This document shows, one piece after another, positions 4,480 to 20,758 of a stretch of DNA of 20,975 nt. The DNA lies in UHGV virus genome UHGV-0216266; one strand, 5' to 3'. The DNA is from a virus. A program made the translations under genes and the position numbers. Below the pieces are notes generated by a model. It was not told the DNA's origin and did no database searches. It saw only the letters and a program-made list of their open reading frames with translations. Position 1 is the first letter of the stretch. Each line of letters starts with the position of its first letter.

Positions 4480-4924
4480 GTTTCACCGTCCACATTTCTT
4501 CAGGTTCATCAGGTTCCGCTACCGCTTCAACGTTCGACACACTGCCGTCAGTGCTGACCAGCACACGCTCCGTCAGTTGCAGGTTAAGGCTGATATCACA
4601 GACATCGTTGCGCAGAATATCCACCTCAAAGGTGAATAGCTTTTCCCGTAACGCCGGGTTATTGATGGCATCGGGCTGGTTATCCCGCAGCCACAGCAAA
4701 ACCGGGGCCATCAGCAGATTCTGGTCGCCGCTGAAATCCTCTATCACCACGTTCAGGGTATAGCGGTACTCCCATGACATGGAGCTGGCCCCCGTGGCAA
4801 CCAGCGAACCGTTATCCACAAACAGATGCAGTTTGTCCGGGTTATTGCGGACATAAGGCACTGCTTTATTGAGGGCGTGGCGCAGGGATTGTGGTTTGTT
4901 CACTGTTTCGCTCCTGACACGCAA
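4472..4924 (-). CDS. R: Tail completion protein (P2 gpR-like)
   Basis: 150-aa ORF. The track start codon is TTG (4922-4924) and there is no nearby in-frame ATG, so the start is uncertain. Follows the lysis cassette as in P2. Confidence 0.65.
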   Translation of the reverse strand: MRVRSETVNKPQSLRHALNKAVPYVRNNPDKLHLFVDNGSLVATGASSMSWEYRYTLNVVIEDFSGDQNLLMAPVLLWLRDNQPDAINNPALREKLFTFEVDILRNDVCDISLNLQLTERVLVSTDGSVSNVEAVAEPDEPEEMWTVKRG

Positions 4925-5156
4925 TAATCATGTCCACTTTGTCTGCACAGACCGCCCAGGCGGCCTCCGTTTCATCCAGCAATGCGTTCAGACCACCGTT
5001 AGTGCGTGGCGCTGCCTGCTCCAGCCGACACGGCGTCACTCGCGGACAACCACTGACGGTAACCTGCACCTCCGGTGAGTGCCGGACGTTCCCGCAGCCG
5101 GATAATGTCAGCAGGCAAAGGAGTATCAGCCCAGCGGCGTAAATCCTCGTTCTCAC
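4866..5156 (-). CDS. lysC: Outer-membrane lipoprotein spanin (o-spanin, LysC/Rz1-like)
   Basis: 96-aa ORF starting (GTG, 5154-5156) inside lysB in another frame and running 59 nt into R. N-terminus MRTRIYAAGLILLCLLTLSGC has a signal peptide plus lipobox (LSGC). Pro-rich C-terminus. Confidence 0.6.
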   Translation of the reverse strand: MRTRIYAAGLILLCLLTLSGCGNVRHSPEVQVTVSGCPRVTPCRLEQAAPRTNGGLNALLDETEAAWAVCADKVDMIIACQERNSEQTTIPAPRPQ

Positions 5157-5427
5157 GTTTCAGTTCCTCGATCCGGCGTTGTCGTTGTCTCAGCTGTGCG
5201 CTGGTCTGTTCTGCTTCGGCATAGAGCCGCGCCTGCTCCCGGTTATTGGTTTCAGTCAGAATGGACAGGCTGATAAGCTGGCTGTTGCTCTTTGCCAGTG
5301 CATGGCTTTTGCTCTGCAGCTCGTCTGCCTGCGTGCTGATGGTCTGGCTGGCATCAGCCAGCCGCCACGTCTGCCAGCCCAGCGCCGCCAGTAATAACGC
5401 CAGCACAACCAGCAGCAACCGGTTCAT
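4999..5427 (-). CDS. lysB: Inner-membrane spanin (i-spanin, LysB/Rz-like)
   Basis: 142-aa ORF, ATG at 5425-5427 overlapping the lysA stop (ATGA). N-terminal TM segment LLLVVLALLLAALGW followed by a charged, coiled-coil-like region (LRQRQRRIEELKRENEDLRR). Confidence 0.7.
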   Translation of the reverse strand: MNRLLLVVLALLLAALGWQTWRLADASQTISTQADELQSKSHALAKSNSQLISLSILTETNNREQARLYAEAEQTSAQLRQRQRRIEELKRENEDLRRWADTPLPADIIRLRERPALTGGAGYRQWLSASDAVSAGAGSATH

Positions 5428-5801
5428 GCTGCTACCTGTTGCGCCATCTGATTACGGGTGATCCAGAAGGCAATAACGGTCAGTAGATAAAAGACCAGGG
5501 TAATAGCCCACCCCGTCCAGGCGAGACTTACAACAATCAGCAATCGCATCACCCAACTGGTAAATACGTTTTCTTTTCGGGTAATTGTCTTCAGCAAAGA
5601 TGCCCTTAACTCCTGCCAGAGCGGACCATTCTTAATTAACGCAGCCAGTGCTACCGGAATTACCGCCCATGTCAGCAAACAGGCTACCCAAACGCCGGAC
5701 TCTGCCAGTACCGGAAAAATCCCCTGCGGATACACCATTGCTGCGATTAACAGCGCCATCCATAACATCAGAAACAGTCCGCTGATTAATTTCTTTTTCA
5801 T
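5424..5801 (-). CDS. lysA: LysA-like membrane protein (lysis accessory, possible antiholin)
   Basis: I prefer the ATG at 5799-5801 (MKKKLISGLFLMLWMALLIAAM..., 125 aa). It has a GGGAG Shine-Dalgarno and abuts the K stop at 5803-5805, whereas the track start at 5873 would overlap K by 70 nt. Multiple hydrophobic helices. Confidence 0.6.
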   Translation of the reverse strand: MKKKLISGLFLMLWMALLIAAMVYPQGIFPVLAESGVWVACLLTWAVIPVALAALIKNGPLWQELRASLLKTITRKENVFTSWVMRLLIVVSLAWTGWAITLVFYLLTVIAFWITRNQMAQQVAA

Positions 5802-5802
5802 T

Positions 5803-6315
5803 TCAGTTTGCTCCCTGTAAGCACCAGGCCATCTCCCGCGCACGGCGGTTATCCAGCCCCTGATTAAAAACACCTTTCACATAAACCCAGCGCGGCAACT
5901 GTCGGCACGCATCTGCCCAGCGCCGCTGATTGAGTAATTTCACCAGCGTGGAACTGCAGGCATTGCCCGTTCCCACGTTGAAGGCAAACGACACCGCAGC
6001 GTCATACACCTTCTGCGGCGGCTGTTGCTTCACACACCTTTCCAGCGCCCGCTCCACACGCAGCACGTTGGAGATCAGCCCTTCTGCTGCCTGTCGCTCC
6101 GTAATGGTTTTGCCGGGAATGACGCCTGACGTATTACCAATGCCGTCGGTCCAGACACCCGCGCTGCACTGATACGGCTGCAGACGACAACCTTCGTAAT
6201 CGGCAATCAGTTTCAGCCCCTCCACGGAGGTGTGAAGCTGCTGAAAACCCGGCAGCGTGGCAGCAATAGCCAGCACGGCCCCGACAAGGCAGCGTTTAAC
6301 GATTGATGGATTCAT
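5803..6315 (-). CDS. K: SAR endolysin (T4/P1 Lyz-type lysozyme, GH24-like)
   Basis: 170-aa ORF. N-terminal weakly hydrophobic Gly/Ala-rich segment containing Cys9 (KRCLVGAVLAIAATLPGF). Catalytic region YEGCRLQPYQCSAGVWTDGIGNT gives E41, C43, C50, T56, matching the E-x-C-x6-C-x5-T spacing I recall for P1 Lyz. Confidence 0.75.
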   Translation of the reverse strand: MNPSIVKRCLVGAVLAIAATLPGFQQLHTSVEGLKLIADYEGCRLQPYQCSAGVWTDGIGNTSGVIPGKTITERQAAEGLISNVLRVERALERCVKQQPPQKVYDAAVSFAFNVGTGNACSSTLVKLLNQRRWADACRQLPRWVYVKGVFNQGLDNRRAREMAWCLQGAN

Positions 6316-6511
6316 AGTCCTCCCGCGAGATCTGCCCGTCGCGCAGAAGCTGGTAGGCTTTGTGTTTGTAGTACCAGTTGATAGCCAGCATCAGCACACC
6401 AATCATCAGGCCGCCCAGCGTTGAGGCATCCTTGATGGACAAATCGCCCAGCCAGGCCAGCACGACGGCGATGCAATACGTGATAAAGGCGCTGATTCGC
6501 TCAAGCGTCAT
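6296..6511 (-). CDS. Y: Holin, probable pinholin (P2 gpY position)
   Basis: 71-aa ORF with two hydrophobic helices (ISAFITYCIAVVLAWLG, LGGLMIGVLMLAINWYY) and a charged C-terminus, immediately upstream of the endolysin. ATG at 6509-6511. Confidence 0.65.
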   Translation of the reverse strand: MTLERISAFITYCIAVVLAWLGDLSIKDASTLGGLMIGVLMLAINWYYKHKAYQLLRDGQISREDYESINR

Positions 6512-6514
6512 AAT

Positions 6515-6718
6515 TCAGTCCCATAGCTGGACGGTCTGCACGGTGGTGGTGGTCGGAATGTCCGGCAGCTCCACCTGCAGCCCGTGAGGTAAAAAGGGGC
6601 CGTATTCGGCAAGCCCCGGATTTGCCTTCAGTACCTGCTCCGTGACACCCTGCGTGCGCCCGTAATGACGCCAGCAAAGCGCGTCCACCGTGTCATACTG
6701 ATGCGCACGCACTTTCAT
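6515..6718 (-). CDS. X: Tail protein X (P2 gpX-like, LysM-like)
   Basis: 67-aa ORF, the same length as P2 X. ATG at 6716-6718 overlaps the L stop (TGATG). Between L and Y as in P2. Confidence 0.7.
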   Translation of the reverse strand: MKVRAHQYDTVDALCWRHYGRTQGVTEQVLKANPGLAEYGPFLPHGLQVELPDIPTTTTVQTVQLWD

Positions 6719-12827: not shown

Positions 12828-13373
12828 TTAGCGTCCCAATCTAAAGTTTAATTTTTCTCTTGGAGTCATTGCACGCCCAATAGCCCCATCTAATAAATGA
12901 CTATTTTTCTCTAAATGTTCACGCGCCCATGGCTGTAAGTTGAAAGCAAAACCGTAGATCATATCCCCAACACTGGTGGCTCTATAAGTAATCCCCTTAG
13001 CCACAAGTCCCCCCATGACCCCATCCTCAGGCCCACACATAAGTGAATTAACACCTTCGGTAATATAAGACTTTAAATATCCTTTTTCTTCTGCTGTTAG
13101 CTTCTCAAGGTAGGAAGTGCGTACCTTCTTAGCCTGCCTTTCACCAAGTAAGTCATAGAAAGAGAGATAGACTCTTGCAACTAAATAAGATACAGACAGT
13201 AAAAATGCAGGTCCAATAAAAATCCTATACTCATTACGAAAGCCATCAACAGCCACTTTTACTGCCAAAGAGTCTGGCAGAAAAAGTATAAGACCTAAAA
13301 CACATGTAATAGCCACAAGAAATGCTGCAGGTACTTTTCGAAAAAACTCTGCAACTCCAGTTATAACGTCCAT
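12828..13373 (-). CDS. Hypothetical two-TM membrane protein (accessory gene between portal gene and cos)
   Basis: 181-aa ORF in visibly AT-rich DNA (~37-40% GC on hand-counted lines, against ~55% in flanking phage genes). ATG at 13371-13373 with a GGAGG Shine-Dalgarno 10 nt upstream. Two N-terminal hydrophobic helices (AAFLVAITCVLGLILFL, IFIGPAFLLSVSYLVARVYL) and a ~110-aa soluble C-terminal domain. No family recognised. Confidence 0.6.
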   Translation of the reverse strand: MDVITGVAEFFRKVPAAFLVAITCVLGLILFLPDSLAVKVAVDGFRNEYRIFIGPAFLLSVSYLVARVYLSFYDLLGERQAKKVRTSYLEKLTAEEKGYLKSYITEGVNSLMCGPEDGVMGGLVAKGITYRATSVGDMIYGFAFNLQPWAREHLEKNSHLLDGAIGRAMTPREKLNFRLGR

Positions 13374-13823: not shown

Positions 13824-14249
13824 ATGAAAAGCTTTTACGTATTAATTTTAATTCTGGTTGCAAGCTTTGTTAGCGTCCCAGTTCAGGCGGTAACAGCTAA
13901 AAACTATGAGAAAGGAACTAAAGCTCAACAGAAATCAATATCTTACCTTTCATGTGCATTCTATGGCAGTAGCACACAATTAGATCCTAGCTACACGGAG
14001 CAAGTACCTACAGCCGATATCAAGATATTACAGAAAGCAGCTTACCACGCTTACAACGATGCGCTCTCATACTTTGGCTATGAGGAACCAGATCACGAAC
14101 AACGCATAATTGATTATGCTGAATTTGTGGCGTCGCAAGAAGCTGTGTTATGGGATAAGCCGGGAATGAATGGAAAGCAGGTAACACTAATTGCTCGTTC
14201 TCTCTACAATGAGAGTAACTGTAACTTGTTACTGGACTCAATTAAGTAG
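13824..14249 (+). CDS. Hypothetical secreted/periplasmic protein (accessory gene at the old/tin-equivalent position)
   Basis: 141-aa ORF in AT-rich DNA. ATG at 13824 with a GAGG Shine-Dalgarno 5 nt upstream. N-terminal signal peptide MKSFYVLILILVASFVSVPVQA with an AXA-type cleavage motif (VQA/VT). Mature ~119 aa with two Cys. Convergent with the DinI-like operon. No family recognised. Confidence 0.6.
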   Translation: MKSFYVLILILVASFVSVPVQAVTAKNYEKGTKAQQKSISYLSCAFYGSSTQLDPSYTEQVPTADIKILQKAAYHAYNDALSYFGYEEPDHEQRIIDYAEFVASQEAVLWDKPGMNGKQVTLIARSLYNESNCNLLLDSIK

Positions 14250-14408
14250 GAAAAAGATGGTATTTTGCCCGTAGTTTCAACCTTAATCTCCAAACCTGTC
14301 GCAGAACGGGCGTTCACTCATCAAATAAACGCCACACCTAACGCCTCACTGTACTCGTTGTTCAACCTTGCTGACGCCAGAAGCAATTTCAGACGCCAGC
14401 AACGTTTC

Positions 14409-14642
14409 TTAATGCAGCCAGCTGTCGTCTTCCCACACCTTCTGCATAATTTTCATCACTTGTTTTCTTTCTTCGTCCAGTTGCAGTCCGGTCAGTTCCA
14501 CACCGTTAGAGCTACCTTTGCGGATACGAATTACCGTTTTGGGATACAGGGGGCGCAGATTGCGGTAAAGCTCGGATTCAAGGGCGTCCAGTGTAGACTG
14601 GCTAATCTTCTGCTCTTTATCGATCATTATTTCAATGCGCAT
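14409..14642 (-). CDS. DinI-family protein (resembles the DinI-like C-terminal part of the 186 Tum antirepressor)
   Basis: ATG at 14640-14642 (MRIEIMIDKEQKISQSTLDALESELYRNLRPLYPKTVIRIRKGSSNGVELTGLQLDEERKQVMKIMQKVWEDDSWLH, 77 aa) with a GAGGTG Shine-Dalgarno. Similar to E. coli DinI (MRIEVTIAK...ETWESADDWFV) as recalled from memory. Confidence 0.7.
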   Translation of the reverse strand: MRIEIMIDKEQKISQSTLDALESELYRNLRPLYPKTVIRIRKGSSNGVELTGLQLDEERKQVMKIMQKVWEDDSWLH

Positions 14643-14652
14643 AAAAGTCACC

Positions 14653-14841
14653 TCAGCTGATGACATCCATTGAGCGGTTGTATTCGTGGGTTCTGATTTT
14701 TGCCATGAGTTCATCTGTCAGTTCAGAAACCCACTGCAGGGCCAGCCCCTTCTCTTCATCACTACACTCACTAGCCGCTACAAGCTTAAGAAAAAAATCA
14801 ATGCGCTGGAGCTTCAAAGACTCCAAAAAATAGTCCTGCAT
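14653..14841 (-). CDS. Small acidic protein, first gene of the LexA-controlled operon (possible Tum N-terminal-like module)
   Basis: 62-aa ORF. ATG at 14839-14841 preceded by GGAGG. Stop 10 nt upstream of the DinI-like start. Directly downstream of the LexA-box promoter. Confidence 0.55.
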   Translation of the reverse strand: MQDYFLESLKLQRIDFFLKLVAASECSDEEKGLALQWVSELTDELMAKIRTHEYNRSMDVIS

Positions 14842-14993: not shown

Positions 14994-17408
14994 TTAATAC
15001 AGGTTCCGCCACTTATCATCTTCCTTCAGACGCTGGTTCCGATAGAAGATACGCAGGCCTGCTCCTGACGGAATACTGCCACCGCGAAGGAGTAAATCTA
15101 CCTCTTTCTCGCTGCCATCAAATCCTCTGGACTTCAGTTCATAGACGAGCTGCTGTCGTTGATGGTCTGTAATTCGCTGTTTGTAGTTTCTACGCCGTTT
15201 CGGTTTCACCAGGCGTAACCTTGCAGCCAGTTCCCGGCGCTCTTTTTTGTTCATACTGTGCAGAAAATCGTGCAACTCCTTGTCATCCATGCGGGTAATA
15301 TCCGTTCTGGTGTCCCCATCAGCTGATTTATCTTTCTCCTGTTGGTTCAAATTTTCAGCAAGGGGACAGTTATTGCCACGAGTCCAAGGGGCGCAAGCGC
15401 CCTGGTCGGCTGCCGCCTCCTGAACGTCAACGGCTTTACGAACCATTTTCCACTTCACTGCATGAGTGCAGATCTTGCCCTCTGCAATGGGTGACCAGAT
15501 GCCATAAATACGAATGCCGTGATCGCCATAGGCGGTCGGCTCTTCGTTGATTTCATAAGCGGTTCTGATGAGGTGATATTTACGGGGAACCAGTACGCCG
15601 CCCTGCTTCATGATGTAGGTGGCAAAACAACCAGCATCAGCAGCAGCCAGAATGGCATCAAGACGCGGGTTATCCAGTACCGGCGCACCTGCTTTTTTGT
15701 CACCCTGTTGCCTTGCCGCCTGACCAGCCAGCAAGCGAAGTTCACGGTAAGCCTGACGCCCCGGAATACCAAAGAAGCGGAATTGCTGAACACGATGCAG
15801 AGACGCCCAGGCATTCACGTATTCAGCGTTATCACGCAGAGATTTACCCGTTTCCTTGCTGATCTCGCCAGCCAGACCACGACCGTCAATGTTCTTACTG
15901 ATATATTTCGCGATGTAGCTTGTCGGCGTTCCTTTGCGCGGGTTAATCAACTCAGACTTAAAGCGCGGCCCAGTGTTATTGCCCAGCTCCTCGCGGTCTT
16001 CACGGATGGCAAACTTACGCAGTAATGCAGTGATGGCACGGCGGTCTTTTTTGCGCATGAAACACAACAGGTGCCAGTGAACTGTGCCATCATGATGCGG
16101 CTCAGCCACCCGCACGCCATACCAGCGCAACCCGGCTTTGTGCATCGCCTTACGAAATGCAGCAAACATGCCGACCAGATAATCGCTGCTTTGTCTTACC
16201 GTCGCGTTTGTCCAGGTCGGGTTTGGTCTGCCGTTATTTAGCGTGGAATGGAAACGCGACGGACAGGTGATAGTGTAGAAAACGGCGCAGTCACCGCGCA
16301 TTTCCGCGATAAGCTCCAGACCTTTAACACAGGCCATCATCTCATTGCGGCGATGCGCAGGGTTGCTGCTGCTGGCGTTTACCACATCCTCCATGTCCAG
16401 CGTGTCGCCGTCTTCGTTCACCAGTTCATGAGAACGGAAAAACTCCAGCGACTTACGGCGCTGCTCACGTCTATGCATCACGGCTTCATAGCTGACATAA
16501 GGAGATGCTTTTTTGCTGACCAGGCAAACAGCGCGCAACTGCTCTTCCCGCCATTCGCAACGCATCTTCCATAATTTCCGATACCACCAGTCGGCGCACA
16601 ACATACGCGCCAGCGAACCCGGAATGAGTTCATAGGGCACGGGTTTACGGCGGTTTCTTTTCCGACGGAGTTGCTCAAACGCAGGTGGGATGACATCCAG
16701 ACGCAGGGTTTCCGCTGCCACCTTTTCCCATGTCTTGCGGATTTCTTCTGGCTTAACGTCATCGGTGGCATACAAATCACCACAAGCTGCATCAAGGCAC
16801 ATACTCATATGCGCAGCTACCAGGGTGGACAGGCGTTTCACCTGATCCTGACTCATTTCAGGCAGGATCAGCAGGCCGTCCAGCCCTTCATGGCTTGCCA
16901 TAAAGCGAAAAGATGCAGATAGCTGACTGTCGCGTACATGCTCCAGTCGTTCCAGACATGGCTTAATCGTCTCACGTAAATAGCGGGAATAAGCCTTTGG
17001 CCTGCCCAGGCTGCTGAAGTATTCAATACGTTGCATCAGCGGCTTGCTGATATGGGAAGGCTGGGCGTTGACGTCCGCCAGAATGACCATGTCTGAATTA
17101 AAACGCTGCTGCTCATGCGCCAGCTTTGCCCGGCTAATGAGCTTATCCTGCTCCATTTCGCGCTGGACAGGATCACGTGATTCATTAAAGAAATAACGCT
17201 CCCAGACCTGATCACTCAGTGCCTCGCGGCGCAACTGTTCCTGCTCGTTATCGGCAGCGTACAGAGTGATCAGGTTTGAAAGCGTAGAAACCGGCGCAAC
17301 TTCCGCCGGGTCCAGATAAGGGTTAATGGCCTTTTTCGTGCTGTTCCATGAGAATGCTGCGGCAGCCTCGTTAAAGCCGCAGCAGTTGTTCATATCGGCA
17401 TGACTCAT
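14994..17408 (-). CDS. A: Replication initiation endonuclease (P2 gpA-like rolling-circle initiator)
   Basis: 804-aa ORF. ATG at 17406-17408 overlaps the Dam stop (ATGA). Contains the His-hydrophobic-His motif VHWHLL typical of HUH-type initiators. Large size and position next to the early region match P2 A / 186 A. Confidence 0.8.
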
Positions 17409-18262
17409 GCACGTACTCCGTACACGGCAGAACTATCCACGCCACGCGAATAATCAAATCCCATCCAGCAGCGCGGCCCGGAAACAGCAATGATTTCTGT
17501 TGCTGATTTACCCTCGCCAGCTGCCACACCGATGCTGCGTTTTACCTTGATATAGTGGTGAGTAAAATTGCGATACAGCGAACGGATCAGGGATGTGTCA
17601 CTGTTAGAAACAATGACCGGATGTCCTTCTGATGACCGATGTTCAAGAACGGATGCCAGGTGATACTGGTCATCTTCAGTGAAACCATCAGTGTGATAAC
17701 CGGAAAACGTACCGTCATATGGCGGATCGCAATACACCACATCTCCCGCCTTCAACATCGTCAGCGTTTCATCAAAGCTGGCGCAGATAAACGTTGCTCG
17801 CTGGGCTTTTTCTGCAAATGTGCGAAGTTCTTTTTCAGGGAAATACGGATTTTTATAATTACCGTAGGGAATGTTGAAATGCCCGCTCTTGTTATAGCGA
17901 CATAAACCACGGTAACCGTGACGATTGAGATACAGGAAATATACCGCTTTCATGAAATCAGTAATTTCAGTTGAGCAGTTAAACTCCTGCCTTATGTTGT
18001 AATAAGCCACCTCCCTGTTTGCGATCTCAAATAAAACTCTGGCGCGAGATATAAACGATTCACAATCAGCGGCAACCTTTTTATAGAGGTTGATTAAATC
18101 AGGATTAATATCCGCAACCAGATAGCTGGGATAATCCGTTTCCATCATCACAGCACAGGAACCCGCGAAAGGTTCAACCAGTCGCGGGCCAGCAGGAAGG
18201 TATTTTTTCAGTTCTGGCATAATGGCGGTTTTATTTCCCGCCCATTTCAGGATGGTGCTCAT
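17405..18262 (-). CDS. DNA N6-adenine methyltransferase (Dam family), orphan
   Basis: ATG at 18260-18262 ([11 protein letters not shown]..., 285 aa) with a GGAGG Shine-Dalgarno. Motifs KWAGNK, EPFAGS (SAM-binding FxGxG) and DPPY (catalytic motif IV of N6-adenine methyltransferases). No adjacent nuclease gene. Confidence 0.85.
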
Positions 18263-18486
18263 ACAGCACCTCCGTTGTAATGTTTGCCTTTCAGTTCTGC
18301 GATTTCCTGACAGGTAATGCAAAGCTGCACTCCCGGAATGGCGCGGCGTCGTGCTGGCGGAATTGGCGCTTCACATTCAATGCAAAGTACGCGTGACACG
18401 CCCGGTGATTTGGCACGGGCTGCACGGATATGGCTCTGGCGTTCTTCTTCAACGCGCTGCTGTACGAGATCCATTGCATCAGCCAT
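18259..18486 (-). CDS. TraR/DksA-family C4 zinc-finger protein
   Basis: 75-aa ORF with CIEC-x17-CITC (CxxC-N17-CxxC). ATG at 18484-18486. Its stop overlaps the Dam start (ATGA). Confidence 0.7.
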   Translation of the reverse strand: MADAMDLVQQRVEEERQSHIRAARAKSPGVSRVLCIECEAPIPPARRRAIPGVQLCITCQEIAELKGKHYNGGAV

Positions 18487-19299: not shown

Positions 19300-19809
19300 T
19301 CACAGCAAACCAAATGAAGCACCGAGGCCAGTCACGGTATCAACTGCACTCGCCATCGCAGGATTAGCCTGTAAACGGGCCTGCAATGAAACAGCCGCCA
19401 GCGCCATCAGTCGTGTTACAGAGTTAATGCTGCTGATAGCATCACGACGACCGGCACAGGTTTTTACATCGCCAGACACCGCACCTGCAGCAACACGCCC
19501 GATCTCTGCGGTTGCACTCATGACGTAATGTGGCAGTTTCTCTTTTGCCACCTCATTAATCGGTACACATGGCAGACAATGAATCTGTGCCAGAAAACCA
19601 TCTACCAGCGTTGAATCTTCAGTCAGATCGGTAAGCAGCCAGATTTCTGGTGCGGTTAATAAATGAGGCTGAGCTGGGTTCAGCTTGTTCCGCAGAATCT
19701 GCACATTCATGCCTGCACGTTCTGCCAGTTGCACCAGATTGTGGCGCAGTGCAAATGCACGACAGGCTTCATCAAAATGTGGATGTTTGGAAACTTGGTA
19801 ATCAAACAT
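19300..19809 (-). CDS. cII: Phage regulatory protein CII (186 CII / CP76 family)
   Basis: ATG at 19807-19809 gives 169 aa ([76 protein letters not shown]...). Length and N-terminal sequence are as I recall for 186 CII. Follows the apl-like gene. Confidence 0.65.
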
Positions 19810-19841
19810 GGTCAATGCCTCTGATGTATTTCAGAATCGAA

Positions 19842-20164: not shown

Positions 20165-20188
20165 GATAAAAGTTCACTTGGAGTGACC

Positions 20189-20758
20189 ATGAATTTGGAG
20201 AAAGGCGGACGAGGCGCCATAGAGCGCATGGTAGAAGCTTATGGATTCAAGACTCGACAGGCGTTGTGCGATCATTTAGGAATCTCTAAAAGTACACTCG
20301 CCACACGCTACATGCGTGACTCATTCCCAGCAGAATGGGTAATCCAGTGCGCCCTTGAAACAGGAACCTCGCTTAATTGGCTCACAACCGGGCATGGTTC
20401 AAAGCAAACTTCAGGTAATACAAATACTATGGAAGTTGCTAAATATGTATTATCTGATGGGGCCTTGTGTGAAGACGGTTTTTATATTTTCGATAGAGAA
20501 TTTCTACCGTCGGCATTCAAGAATCTTTTTGTAATCACAGATAATAATTCTGAATTTATTTGTGATAAGGAATTTGATGATATACGTGATGGTAAATGGG
20601 TAATAAGTATTGATGGCGAAATAACGATCCGTGACATTACTCGTTTACCCGGTGGAAGAATCTTCGTCGAGGGTGGAAACAGAGCCTTCGAATGTAAGAT
20701 AGAAGACATTGAAATAATTGGTAAAATTATAAGCTTAACAGTCAAGTATGTTAAATAG
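20189..20758 (+). CDS. cI: CI-type immunity repressor (186 CI-like)
   Basis: ATG at 20189-20191 with GGAG 5 nt upstream (MNLEKGGRG...). The track ORF starts at GTG 20183. 189-191 aa against ~192 aa for 186 CI by memory. N-terminal HTH (TRQALCDHLGISKSTLATRY). Divergent from apl. Confidence 0.65.
   Translation: MNLEKGGRGAIERMVEAYGFKTRQALCDHLGISKSTLATRYMRDSFPAEWVIQCALETGTSLNWLTTGHGSKQTSGNTNTMEVAKYVLSDGALCEDGFYIFDREFLPSAFKNLFVITDNNSEFICDKEFDDIRDGKWVISIDGEITIRDITRLPGGRIFVEGGNRAFECKIEDIEIIGKIISLTVKYVK

Follow-up and report, generated by a model that had tools for sequence, protein, structure and literature searches.

Lysis cassette of a P2-family prophage with a putative P1 Lyz-type SAR endolysin and a probable pinholin

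Introduction

Disulfide caging of endolysins was reportedly described by Kuty et al. in 2010. The endolysin triad of the form E-8x-C/D-5x-T has been documented, as has the part that the catalytic Cys of P1 Lyz plays in a disulfide (PMC3556154). The endolysin of phage 21, R21, has a catalytic Asp, lacks a Cys in its signal-arrest-release (SAR) domain, and is regulated conformationally; its partner S21 uses a dual start to make an antiholin, and the Gly/Ser/Ala-rich TMD1 of S21 leaves the membrane. A third system, hol/lys of the Haemophilus phage HP1, belongs to the Peduoviridae. HP1 Lys lyses Escherichia coli alone and in a Sec-dependent manner (PMC7312051), HP1 Hol and S21 are both experimentally supported pinholins (PMC7312051; S21 record annotation), and the role of the glycine zipper in pinholins has been described (PMC9025707).

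Phage P2 itself is equipped differently. P2 Y is a 93-aa holin (PF04550, phrog_175) with three hydrophobic stretches, whereas P2 K, of 165 aa (phrog_90), is soluble and lacks a hydrophobic segment at its N-terminus. This bears out what an earlier note, made from the letters of the present DNA, had said of P2. In the P2 record, lysA is annotated as “nonessential; affects timing of lysis.”

Here, we analyzed a window of 20,975 nucleotides (the whole stretch of DNA from virus genome UHGV-0216266, numbered from its first letter) and compared its lysis genes with these systems. We put at about 0.78 the probability that the window holds a lysis cassette from the late operon of a P2-family prophage (Peduoviridae), one that works by means of a SAR endolysin and a probable pinholin. 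Close prophage kin are Escherichia phage 500465-1 and Klebsiella phage 4LV2017, with Fels-2 more distant. Orthologous cassettes in Fels-2, SEN8, RE2010 (Salmonella), Escherichia phage 500465-1, Klebsiella 4LV2017, and KP12 have 85-98% nucleotide identity to the present one and match its gene order, with no substantial difference from it. The cassette is already annotated and described in close relatives, and its novelty is low: the Fels-2 record notes the similarity of the endolysin to P1 Lyz, and the orthologue KP12.peg.319 has been purified, found to be lytic, and, from a model resembling P1 Lyz, described as a P1-like SAR endolysin (2023, PMC9902359).

Results

Cassette layout and neighboring genes

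The earlier note had placed the lysis pair, with a holin of 71 aa, in 5803-6511. Our reading of the frames agrees exactly, with the 71-aa holin at 6296-6511 and a 170-aa endolysin at 5803-6315, both on the minus strand. The cassette runs holin, endolysin, lysA, lysB, lysC and has the following features.

6296..6511, minus strand: class II holin of 71 aa, probable pinholin (PF16080, phrog_20, hhalign against S21)
5803..6315, minus strand: GH24 muramidase of 170 aa, putative SAR endolysin (P1 Lyz subtype; PF00959, PDB 1XJT/1XJU)
6244..6291, minus strand: predicted signal-arrest-release segment, endolysin residues 9-24, CLVGAVLAIAATLPGF (hydrophobicity, conservation)
6148..6195, minus strand: predicted endolysin catalytic and caging motif, E41-G-C43-x6-C50-x5-T56 (P1 Lyz alignment)
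5424..5801, minus strand: LysA-like membrane protein of 125 aa (phrog_162, NF038378)
4999..5427, minus strand: LysB, an Rz-like inner-membrane (i-) spanin with an N-terminal TMD (TIGR03495, phrog_89)
4866..5156, minus strand: LysC, an Rz1-like outer-membrane lipoprotein (o-) spanin (PF23793, NF038368)

The holin and endolysin genes overlap by 20 nt, and a GGAGG Shine-Dalgarno lies just 5' of the endolysin ATG at 6315. Coupling is tight at the next two junctions, which read TGAnATG (lys-lysA, with the lysA ATG 1 nt past the endolysin stop) and ATGA (lysA-lysB), and lysC overlaps the end of lysB. A promoter and terminator scan of the cassette returned nothing beyond shuffled expectation, and PADLOC gave no matches on the cargo ORFs adjoining the portal gene.

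The three downstream products resemble those of P2. The LysA-like protein has strongly hydrophobic stretches that we read as four TMDs, matches NCBIfam NF038378, and belongs to phrog_162 (E 6e-43), as does P2 LysA (E 2e-67); it is a putative lysis-timing factor or antiholin. LysB matches TIGR03495 phage_LysB above cutoff (E 2e-51) as well as phrog_89 and is 35% identical to P2 LysB over the C-terminal half of the P2 protein. LysC, with the lipobox LSGC, matches PF23793 (E 2e-14) and, above cutoff, NF038368 P2_Rz1 (E 8e-36) and is 41% identical to P2 LysC.

In P2, Y and K occupy the same late-operon slot as the pair described here, between X and lysA, and the X proteins are 61% identical. The holin and endolysin have no meaningful BLASTP similarity to P2 Y and K, their Pfam and PHROG families differ from those of the P2 proteins, and hhalign of the holin against Y gives 3.6%. 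By these comparisons, the holin-endolysin pair is unrelated to Y and K, and the flanking X, lysA, lysB, and lysC genes are homologues of their P2 counterparts, in keeping with the earlier suggestion of an exchanged lysis module. Either side may have made the exchange, and P2 itself could be the exception within its family.

Of 5426 complete E. coli genomes, 1031 (19%) carry the cassette; it ranks among the commonest prophage lysis modules in Enterobacteriaceae. A locus search for the holin alignment returned 80 loci, all of them 100% identical and showing no diversity. Many Lys-LysA fusions of 277-296 aa are present in databases. Programmed frameshifting was considered for these and rejected: the fusion junctions differ in position near the lys end in the two sequences inspected, and, since no stop interrupts the lysA frame in the 24 codons 5' of its ATG, slipping into that frame anywhere in the last part of lys gives a fusion.

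The endolysin as a homologue of P1 Lyz

The endolysin carries a GH24 domain (PF00959, E 4.6e-40), and its top match among PDB chains in a phmmer search is P1 Lyz (1XJT, 1XJU; E 2e-26). Identity is 37% to P1/P7 Lyz (172 aa aligned) and 34% to HP1 Lys. The P1/P7 Lyz sequence was taken from the P7 record, which has C13, E42, C44, C51, and T57, the last four of which agree with the positions given in the earlier note. Around the active site, the endolysin (“adyEgCrlqpyqCsagvwTdgignt”) aligns gap-free with P1 (“gnaEgCrrdpymCpagvwTdgignt”), and the proposed P1 Lyz spacing is borne out: E41, C43, C50, and T56 correspond to E42, C44, C51, and T57. We read the respective codons at 6193-6195, 6187-6189, 6166-6168, and 6148-6150, with C9 at 6289-6291, and the spacing of the triad is E-8x-C-5x-T. 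The catalytic position is thus occupied by Cys (C50), not by Asp. Across 34 close homologues, E41, C50, and T56 never vary, and conservation of C43 is at least 90%.

An AF2 model built from the 34 close homologues has 1XJT as its best PDB match (TMq 0.74, Foldseek). Its mean pLDDT is 70.9, with values of <50 over residues 40-69; this weak zone is the catalytic and caging region, and the model was used for the coarse fold only and not for Cys-Cys proximity. Judging from the alignments, the match to P1 Lyz is one of homology, not chance.

P1/P7 Lyz and the endolysin share the GH24 fold, the Glu-8x-Cys-5x-Thr triad, a Cys at Glu+2 as the predicted cage residue, another Cys in the signal anchor, and a total of seven Cys. 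All seven endolysin Cys have counterparts in P1 Lyz, five of them exact and two shifted by a helical turn or an indel (C94/C120 here, C91/C118 in P1 Lyz). P1 Lyz differs in having an 11-residue insert (119-129) that is missing from the endolysin and in its hydrophobic segment, which is about 20 aa long with the Cys mid-helix, whereas that of the endolysin is 13-16 aa long with Cys9 right after KR, at the cytoplasmic end. Genetic context differs too: the P1 genome has lydD 3' of lyz and an unlinked lydA, whereas here the holin is upstream, in a P2-type cassette.

The holin and the size of the hole

The holin has two uncharged hydrophobic stretches (residues 6-22 and 29-48), in line with the two TM helices first proposed for this 71-aa protein, a loop, DLSIKD, with a net charge of -1, and a charged C-terminal tail rich in K/R/E/D, all consistent with the N-in/C-in layout expected of class II holins of small size. 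It matches PF16080, the HP1 holin family, at 36.7 bits (cutoff, 28.8), scores 23.2 bits against PF04971 (P21 S), below the cutoff of 26, and falls in phrog_20 (E 2e-26), the PHROG that also holds S21 (E 1e-32) and HP1 Hol (E 9e-10). NCBI names its homologues “HP1 family phage holin.” Alignment with the phage 21 holin, which the earlier note had proposed as a check, gives an hhalign probability of 69% (E 4e-5) against S21; for the enzymes of the two phages, R21 has Asp where the endolysin here has Cys. Set against HP1 Hol alone, the holin gave no significant match (BLASTP E 0.19; hhalign 5%); the link to HP1 comes from the Pfam and PHROG profiles.

The HP1 cassette, from the same phage family, resembles this one in that its holin lacks a dual-start motif and hol overlaps lys; it differs in its place, which is behind the tail tube gene instead of X, and in the lack of an annotated lysA or lysC. 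S21 and the holin here are both class II proteins of 68-71 aa with an acid-base pair at the N-terminus (MDKIS in S21, MTLERIS here) as well as the motif N(W/L)Y(Y/F)K, and the N-terminus of five residues with one positive charge is like that of S21-68. They also share a small-xxx-small-xxx-small pattern in TMD2, where S30-G34-G38 aligns with the S21 zipper G40-S44-G48; in the holin homologues, G34 is invariant and S30 and G38 are at least 90% conserved. Unlike S21, the holin has no dual start.

We consider the holin a probable pinholin on the strength of these family and motif matches. An alternative is that it is a canonical large-hole class II holin that happens to sit beside a SAR endolysin. 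Either kind of holin would serve, because SAR endolysins need only depolarization, and P1 Lyz and R21 both function with canonical holins (PMC9025707). The character of TMD1 also speaks for a large hole. This segment (ISAFITYCIAVVLAWLG) is shorter than in S21, and its mean Kyte-Doolittle hydropathy (KD) is 2.12 with 35% Gly/Ala/Ser/Thr, compared with 0.52 and 55% for S21, 1.08 for HP1 Hol, and about 1.0 for Pseudomonas relatives; it is therefore not weakly hydrophobic in the manner of a SAR domain, hydropathy being a proxy for behavior only. The alignment with S21 shows no counterpart in the holin of a 6-residue Gly/Ser-rich insert that S21 has. Given the hydrophobic TMD1 and the missing insert, exit from the membrane, which is essential for pinhole formation by S21, is doubtful here. 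Furthermore, a heptamer model of the orthologous KP12 holin was poor (pLDDT about 51; PMC9902359).

Weighing against the large hole are the Pfam family and PHROG that the holin has in common with two experimentally supported pinholins, the alignment with the S21 zipper, and the company that such holins keep. Distant relatives, collected by tblastn against phage records, lie beside SAR endolysins in 7 of 7 cases from three phage lineages; S21 and HP1 Hol are paired in the same way, and none of these nine has a cytoplasmic endolysin as its partner. A large-hole holin is on these grounds somewhat unlikely. The earlier description of the holin as pinholin-like in size and topology is supported; the holin also matches pinholins in family, zipper, and SAR pairing, though not in having a SAR-like TMD1.

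The two observations on TMD1 and the start codons may belong together. In the enterobacterial branch of the HP1/S21 holins, TMD1 would now be a stable helix and the dual-start antiholin would have been lost, with LysA as antiholin and a trigger other than the externalization used by S21. We regard this scenario as speculative and rather doubtful; if true, it would be a distinct control route for a P1 Lyz-type SAR endolysin.

Cysteines and the predicted cage

Three Cys carry the comparison with P1 Lyz. MAFFT aligns C9 with P1 C13 and HP1 C11, and C43 with P1 C44 and HP1 C49; C9 is invariant among the close homologues, and HP1 Lys shows the same Cys pattern as the endolysin (C11, C49, C56). The pair C43/C50 needs more caution, since the motif E-x-C-x6-C-x5-T also occurs in 20 homologues without the N-terminal extension, so that the Cys pair alone is no proof of caging. 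These 20 proteins are presumably cytoplasmic, and a cage of the P1 Lyz kind would be impossible in them; likewise, the phiCbK endolysin has a catalytic Cys and no SAR domain (PMC3556154). Such cases would suit a SAR endolysin regulated conformationally, like R21, in which the Cys are structural or catalytic only and no cage or isomerization exists. That account is improbable in view of the N-terminal Cys, which 20/22 SAR endolysins of the Cys type have and 0/6 of the Asp type (Fisher p 7e-5), the alignment of all three key Cys with P1 C13, C44, and C51, and the odd Cys count of seven, as in P1 Lyz. An odd count is compatible with one thiol being free throughout. Regulation through a disulfide cage is the reading that we carry forward.

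The N-terminal segment

The endolysin begins with a positive n-region (K7, R8). Behind it comes a short segment, Ala-rich and weakly hydrophobic, which bears the Cys. The hydrophobic core, CLVGAVLAIAATL, is 13 aa long, or 16 aa if extended to F24, and is shorter than the ~20-aa SAR domains of P1 Lyz and R21. The earlier note had called the segment Gly/Ala-rich; Cys9, the weak hydrophobicity, and the richness in Ala are all there, but it holds a single Gly. Over residues 9-24, KD is 2.1 and Gly/Ala/Ser/Thr make up 44%, values comparable to those of the SAR domains of P1, HP1, and R21. Endolysin homologues conserve a “KRC + 12 residues + P” pattern together with the Cys. A lipoprotein signal was considered and rejected, as no lipobox precedes any Cys.

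Cleavage of the segment as a Sec signal peptide, which would make the enzyme a secreted soluble lysozyme with no role for Cys9, restrained only by the energized membrane like Lys44 of Oenococcus phage fOg44, is very improbable: although the core has the length of a signal-peptide h-region (13-16 residues), KR before it and Pro-Gly after it give an n-h-c layout, and an A-I-A motif lies at residues 16-18, that motif sits inside the helix core with just 7 hydrophobic residues before it, the homologues have PGF, PQF, or PDF after the core with no small residue conserved at -1 and thus no conserved signal-peptidase site past the core, and the invariance of Cys9 in close homologues and its covariation with the catalytic Cys would be unexpected in a discarded peptide and argue that the segment is kept in the mature protein. 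SignalP-type tools labelled HP1 Lys, which is SAR by experiment, a signal peptide (PMC7312051), so the sequence alone is ambiguous on this point. With all sequence-testable features present, classification of the enzyme as a SAR endolysin of the P1 Lyz subtype is supported.

Discussion

Gene structure, homology, motif alignment, cysteine covariation, and genomic pairing form the basis of the mechanism proposed here, which is modelled on P1 Lyz, R21/S21, and HP1. We infer export, tethering, release, disulfide isomerization, and hole size by homology. The Sec system would export the endolysin, and the uncleaved N-terminal segment (residues 9-24) would tether it to the inner membrane. In this tethered state, the enzyme is predicted to be inactive because Cys50 would be locked in a disulfide with Cys43, while Cys9, where the membrane helix meets the cytoplasm, would keep its thiol free. 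Meanwhile, the holin (71 aa, class II) would build up and then depolarize the membrane, most likely through small pinholes. On loss of the proton-motive force, the SAR segment would exit the bilayer, and Cys9 could then attack the cage, forming Cys9-Cys43 and freeing Cys50 for the Glu41-Cys50-Thr56 triad. The activated endolysin would degrade the wall around the whole cell, after which the LysB/LysC spanin would disrupt the outer membrane; LysA probably tunes the timing.

The cassette matters little beyond correct annotation. Pairs of this kind, a pinholin-family holin and a SAR endolysin of the P1 Lyz type, are textbook material, and HP1, another P2-family phage, provides an experimental case. 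Some annotations do need to be fixed: in the Fels-2 reference, the endolysin start is placed 11 codons late, omitting the SAR-domain KRC (K7, R8, and C9), and lysA is split into two ORFs; LysA homologues are mislabelled “endolysin.” Any use of the lysozyme as an enzybiotic would require that the SAR segment and the regulatory cysteines be removed or allowed for. For the family, this holin branch with its hydrophobic TMD1 would serve, in a modest way, to probe the generality of the S21 pinhole pathway.

Gene order and relation to P2

By its sequence, the window is a P2-family prophage, and its lysis cassette, with tail gene X ahead of it, has the following gene order.

6515-6718, minus strand: tail gene X (PF05489; 61% identity to P2 X), with the holin gene downstream
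6296-6511, minus strand: holin, a 71-aa ORF directly after X
5803-6315, minus strand: endolysin (lys), a 170-aa ORF preceded by GGAGG and overlapping the holin ORF by 20 nt
5424-5801, minus strand: LysA-like membrane protein of 125 aa, with its ATG 1 nt past the lys stop
4999-5427, minus strand: LysB, with an ATGA overlap with the gene for the 125-aa membrane protein
4866-5156, minus strand: LysC, overlapping the end of lysB

An earlier note proposed that 5803-6511, which is exactly the holin and endolysin genes, encodes a pinholin and an endolysin with a P1 Lyz-type cysteine cage, and that this module had been exchanged relative to P2. The exchange is borne out. As that note stated, P2 Y is a larger, three-TM holin (93 aa, three hydrophobic stretches; PF04550, phrog_175) and P2 K is of the soluble type (165 aa, N-terminal hydrophobic segment absent; phrog_90); neither has meaningful similarity to the window's holin and endolysin, whereas the cassette flanks are homologous to P2 (X as listed, LysC at 41% and LysB at 35% identity, and LysA in the same PHROG). 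On these protein comparisons, the pair is thus a non-homologous replacement within a conserved operon, and the exchange may have gone in either direction. The combination of an HP1-type holin with a P1 Lyz-type endolysin occurs in several Peduoviridae genera (HP1, Fels-2, EtG, ENT90, and Yersinia phages). The 2-kb lysis region shares 97-98% identity with Escherichia phage 500465-1 (Peduoviridae, Wadgaonvirus) and Klebsiella phages 4LV2017 and KP12, and ~85% with Fels-2, SEN8, and RE2010. Of 5426 complete E. coli genomes, 1031 contain the holin-endolysin stretch, several with 100% identity, and the matches are annotated as "lysozyme" and "HP1 family phage holin."

Endolysin

The endolysin matches Pfam Phage_lysozyme (PF00959, E value 4.6e-40), and among all PDB chains it is matched best by P1 Lyz in its active and inactive forms (1XJT, 2e-26; 1XJU, 5e-25). 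In this match, endolysin residues 39-62 pair with the P1 catalytic stretch free of gaps. Alignment with P1/P7 Lyz, using the sequence from the P7 record, gave 37% identity over 172 residues. E41, C43, C50, and T56 correspond, as the earlier note stated, to P1 Lyz E42, C44, C51, and T57, with Cys at the catalytic position, and Cys9 shares one alignment column with P1 C13 and HP1 C11. Both enzymes have seven cysteines (9, 43, 50, 94, 120, 137, and 165 in the endolysin; 13, 44, 51, 91, 118, 150, and 178 in P1 Lyz), an odd count compatible with one thiol being free at all times. An AF2 model of moderate confidence (pLDDT 70.9, poor at residues 40-69) has 1XJT as its top PDB match over 169 columns, N-terminal helix included.

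The N-terminus, MNPSIVKR-CLVGAVLAIAATL-PGFQQ, could be a signal-arrest-release (SAR) segment, a cleavable signal peptide, or a stable anchor. Its uncharged core of 13 residues (16 if counted to F24) resembles the SAR domains of P1, HP1, and R21, the phage 21 endolysin, in hydropathy; those domains run to roughly 20 residues, and the shorter core has the length of a signal-peptide h-region. Two comparative arguments favor an uncleaved segment. First, a small residue at -1 is not conserved, since homologues have PGF, PQF, or PDF after the core, and the A-I-A motif (residues 16-18) lies inside the helix core. Second, the Cys is conserved and covaries with the catalytic chemistry. It is found in the hydrophobic stretch of 15/17 homologues with <70% identity, a SAR-like N-terminus, and the E-C-C-T pattern (the other two look N-terminally truncated), as well as in P1, HP1, EtG, ENT90, and YenM_06.16-2, but in none of six Asp-type SAR endolysins, with R21 checked against the phage 21 record. 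The resulting contrast, 20/22 Cys-type versus 0/6 Asp-type (Fisher p 7e-5), involves related sequences, so that the p value is indicative only.

Because E-x-C-x6-C-x5-T is also found in 20 homologues without an N-terminal extension, the two Cys do not by themselves indicate caging; support for the P1 mechanism comes from the three cysteines together. GH24 lysozymes P0163, P0167, P0203, and others without the extension show that the pair is not confined to exported enzymes. Soluble Cys-type endolysins may descend from P1 Lyz-like ancestors (PMC3556154), with which the pattern in the GH24 homologues agrees.

Holin

The 71-aa holin is hydrophobic and uncharged at residues 6-22 and 29-48; as its loop is net negative and its C-terminus highly charged, it is predicted to be a class II holin of N-in/C-in topology. 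It scores 36.7 bits against PF16080, "HP1 holin family" (gathering threshold, 28.8), and 23.2 bits against PF04971, "P21 holin S," just under the threshold of 26. The holin, the phage 21 pinholin S21, and HP1 Hol all match phrog_20 (E values 2e-26, 1e-32, and 9e-10). A profile of 30 holin homologues aligned with S21 at 69% probability (E value 4e-5, 50 columns), pairing MTLERIS with (M)DKIS, NWYYK with NLYFK, and S30-G34-G38 with the S21 zipper G40-S44-G48. HP1 Hol acts as a pinholin: cells are killed but neither lyse nor leak beta-galactosidase, and phage release depends on it. HP1 Lys acts as a SAR endolysin (PMC7312051).

Gene neighbors of seven distant holin relatives (28-37% identity) provided an independent test. 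These were four Peduoviridae (YenM_06.16-2, EtG, MHG75, and ENT90), two Autographiviridae (Ep4 and YMC11/06/C171), and an unclassified phage of Yersinia, YenM_210.17, whose lysis cassette is of the lambda-style S/R/Rz kind. In 7/7, the gene after the holin encodes an endolysin whose N-terminus is SAR-type, of the Cys or Asp kind, which fits the pinholin class because a pinholin is not known to serve a cytoplasmic endolysin.

The holin is therefore probably a pinholin by family and context. Speaking against this, its TMD1 is the most hydrophobic of the compared set (mean Kyte-Doolittle hydropathy 2.12; 35% Gly/Ala/Ser/Thr), whereas that of S21 (0.52; 55%) carries a Gly/Ser-rich insert missing here. 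There is also no dual start, with a stop two codons upstream of the ATG and no MKSMDK-like motif. The S21 pathway, with its exit of TMD1 from the membrane, may therefore not hold for this holin. The five-residue N-terminus with one positive charge resembles S21-68; S21 becomes an antiholin when further positive charges are added at its N-terminus (PMC9025707).

In P2-like phages of Yersinia and Erwinia, the holin relatives start with MGLKMEK, MGLTMEK, or MKMEK (loci L086, 1295-1516; L089, 1295-1516; L088, 1301-1516), possibly dual-start antiholin/holin motifs comparable to MKSMDK of S21. Separately, Cys13 in TMD1 (window 6473-6475) is at least 90% conserved in close homologues (56-99% identity); V, W, L, or G takes its place in the relatives from Yersinia, Erwinia, and phage 21.

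Proposed lysis mechanism

Gene structure, homology, the motif with its Cys covariation, and genomic pairing are shown directly, and every biochemical step that follows is carried over from P1 Lyz, R21/S21, and HP1. The endolysin would be exported by Sec and tethered through residues 9-24, inactive while its catalytic Cys is caged by C43-C50. Depolarization of the membrane by the holin would release the SAR segment, upon which C9 would attack C43, freeing C50 for murein degradation. LysB/LysC would then disrupt the outer membrane, with LysA modulating the timing.

Annotation of related loci

Public protein sets contain dozens of 276-296-aa endolysin-LysA fusions, one of which (P0012) is present on 30 contigs. 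The lysA frame stays open over the 24 codons that precede its ATG (window 5803-5873). In the two fusions inspected, P0012 and P0015, the frame changes within the last lys codons at differing positions; the fusions look like pseudogenes or assembly errors rather than products of programmed frameshifting. In Fels-2 (NC_010463.1, 2125-3014), the endolysin is annotated from an internal codon (158 aa), omitting MNPSIVKRCLV with its charged n-region and SAR Cys, and the lysA homologue is split into two "hypothetical proteins." LysA homologues (window 5424-5801; related loci L001, 2125-2502, and L002, 2010-2435), small proteins of the membrane, have strongly hydrophobic stretches and match no enzymatic domain in Pfam. 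Their "endolysin" label, carried by PHROG 162 and several RefSeq phage records, P2 included, is a propagated misannotation.

Other genes of the prophage

12828-13373, minus strand: SieB-like superinfection-exclusion gene (PF14163, E value 4.5e-25)
13824-14249, plus strand: 141-aa ORF without Pfam or PADLOC match
14265-14660, plus strand: 131-aa ORF without Pfam or PADLOC match
14994-17408: gene A replication protein
17405-18322, minus strand: Dam-like D12-class N6-adenine methyltransferase (PF02086; PADLOC "orphan methyltransferase," E value 2e-110), immediately upstream of gene A and overlapping it
19300-19815, minus strand: CII (CP76) regulator, immunity region
20183-20758, plus strand: CI repressor (PF07022 and PF16452 domains), immunity region

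In the interval from portal gene Q to gene A, the position of old and tin in P2, the window has the SieB-like gene and the two ORFs beside it, which may be prophage cargo or defense genes. With an immunity region of phage 186 type, the prophage is thus 186/Fels-2-like and not P2-like in its control region.

Relation to earlier work

The Fels-2 RefSeq record already mentions the likeness of its endolysin to P1 Lyz, and the NCBI name of the holin is "HP1 family phage holin." The KP12 orthologue, peg.319, was modeled on 1XJT in 2023 and its conserved SAR domain noted; the purified protein was lytic, and a partner pinholin was sought, with the cysteines not discussed (PMC9902359). The earlier note's analysis of the lysis cassette was correct and careful, and the cassette is an ordinary, already recognized module of low novelty.
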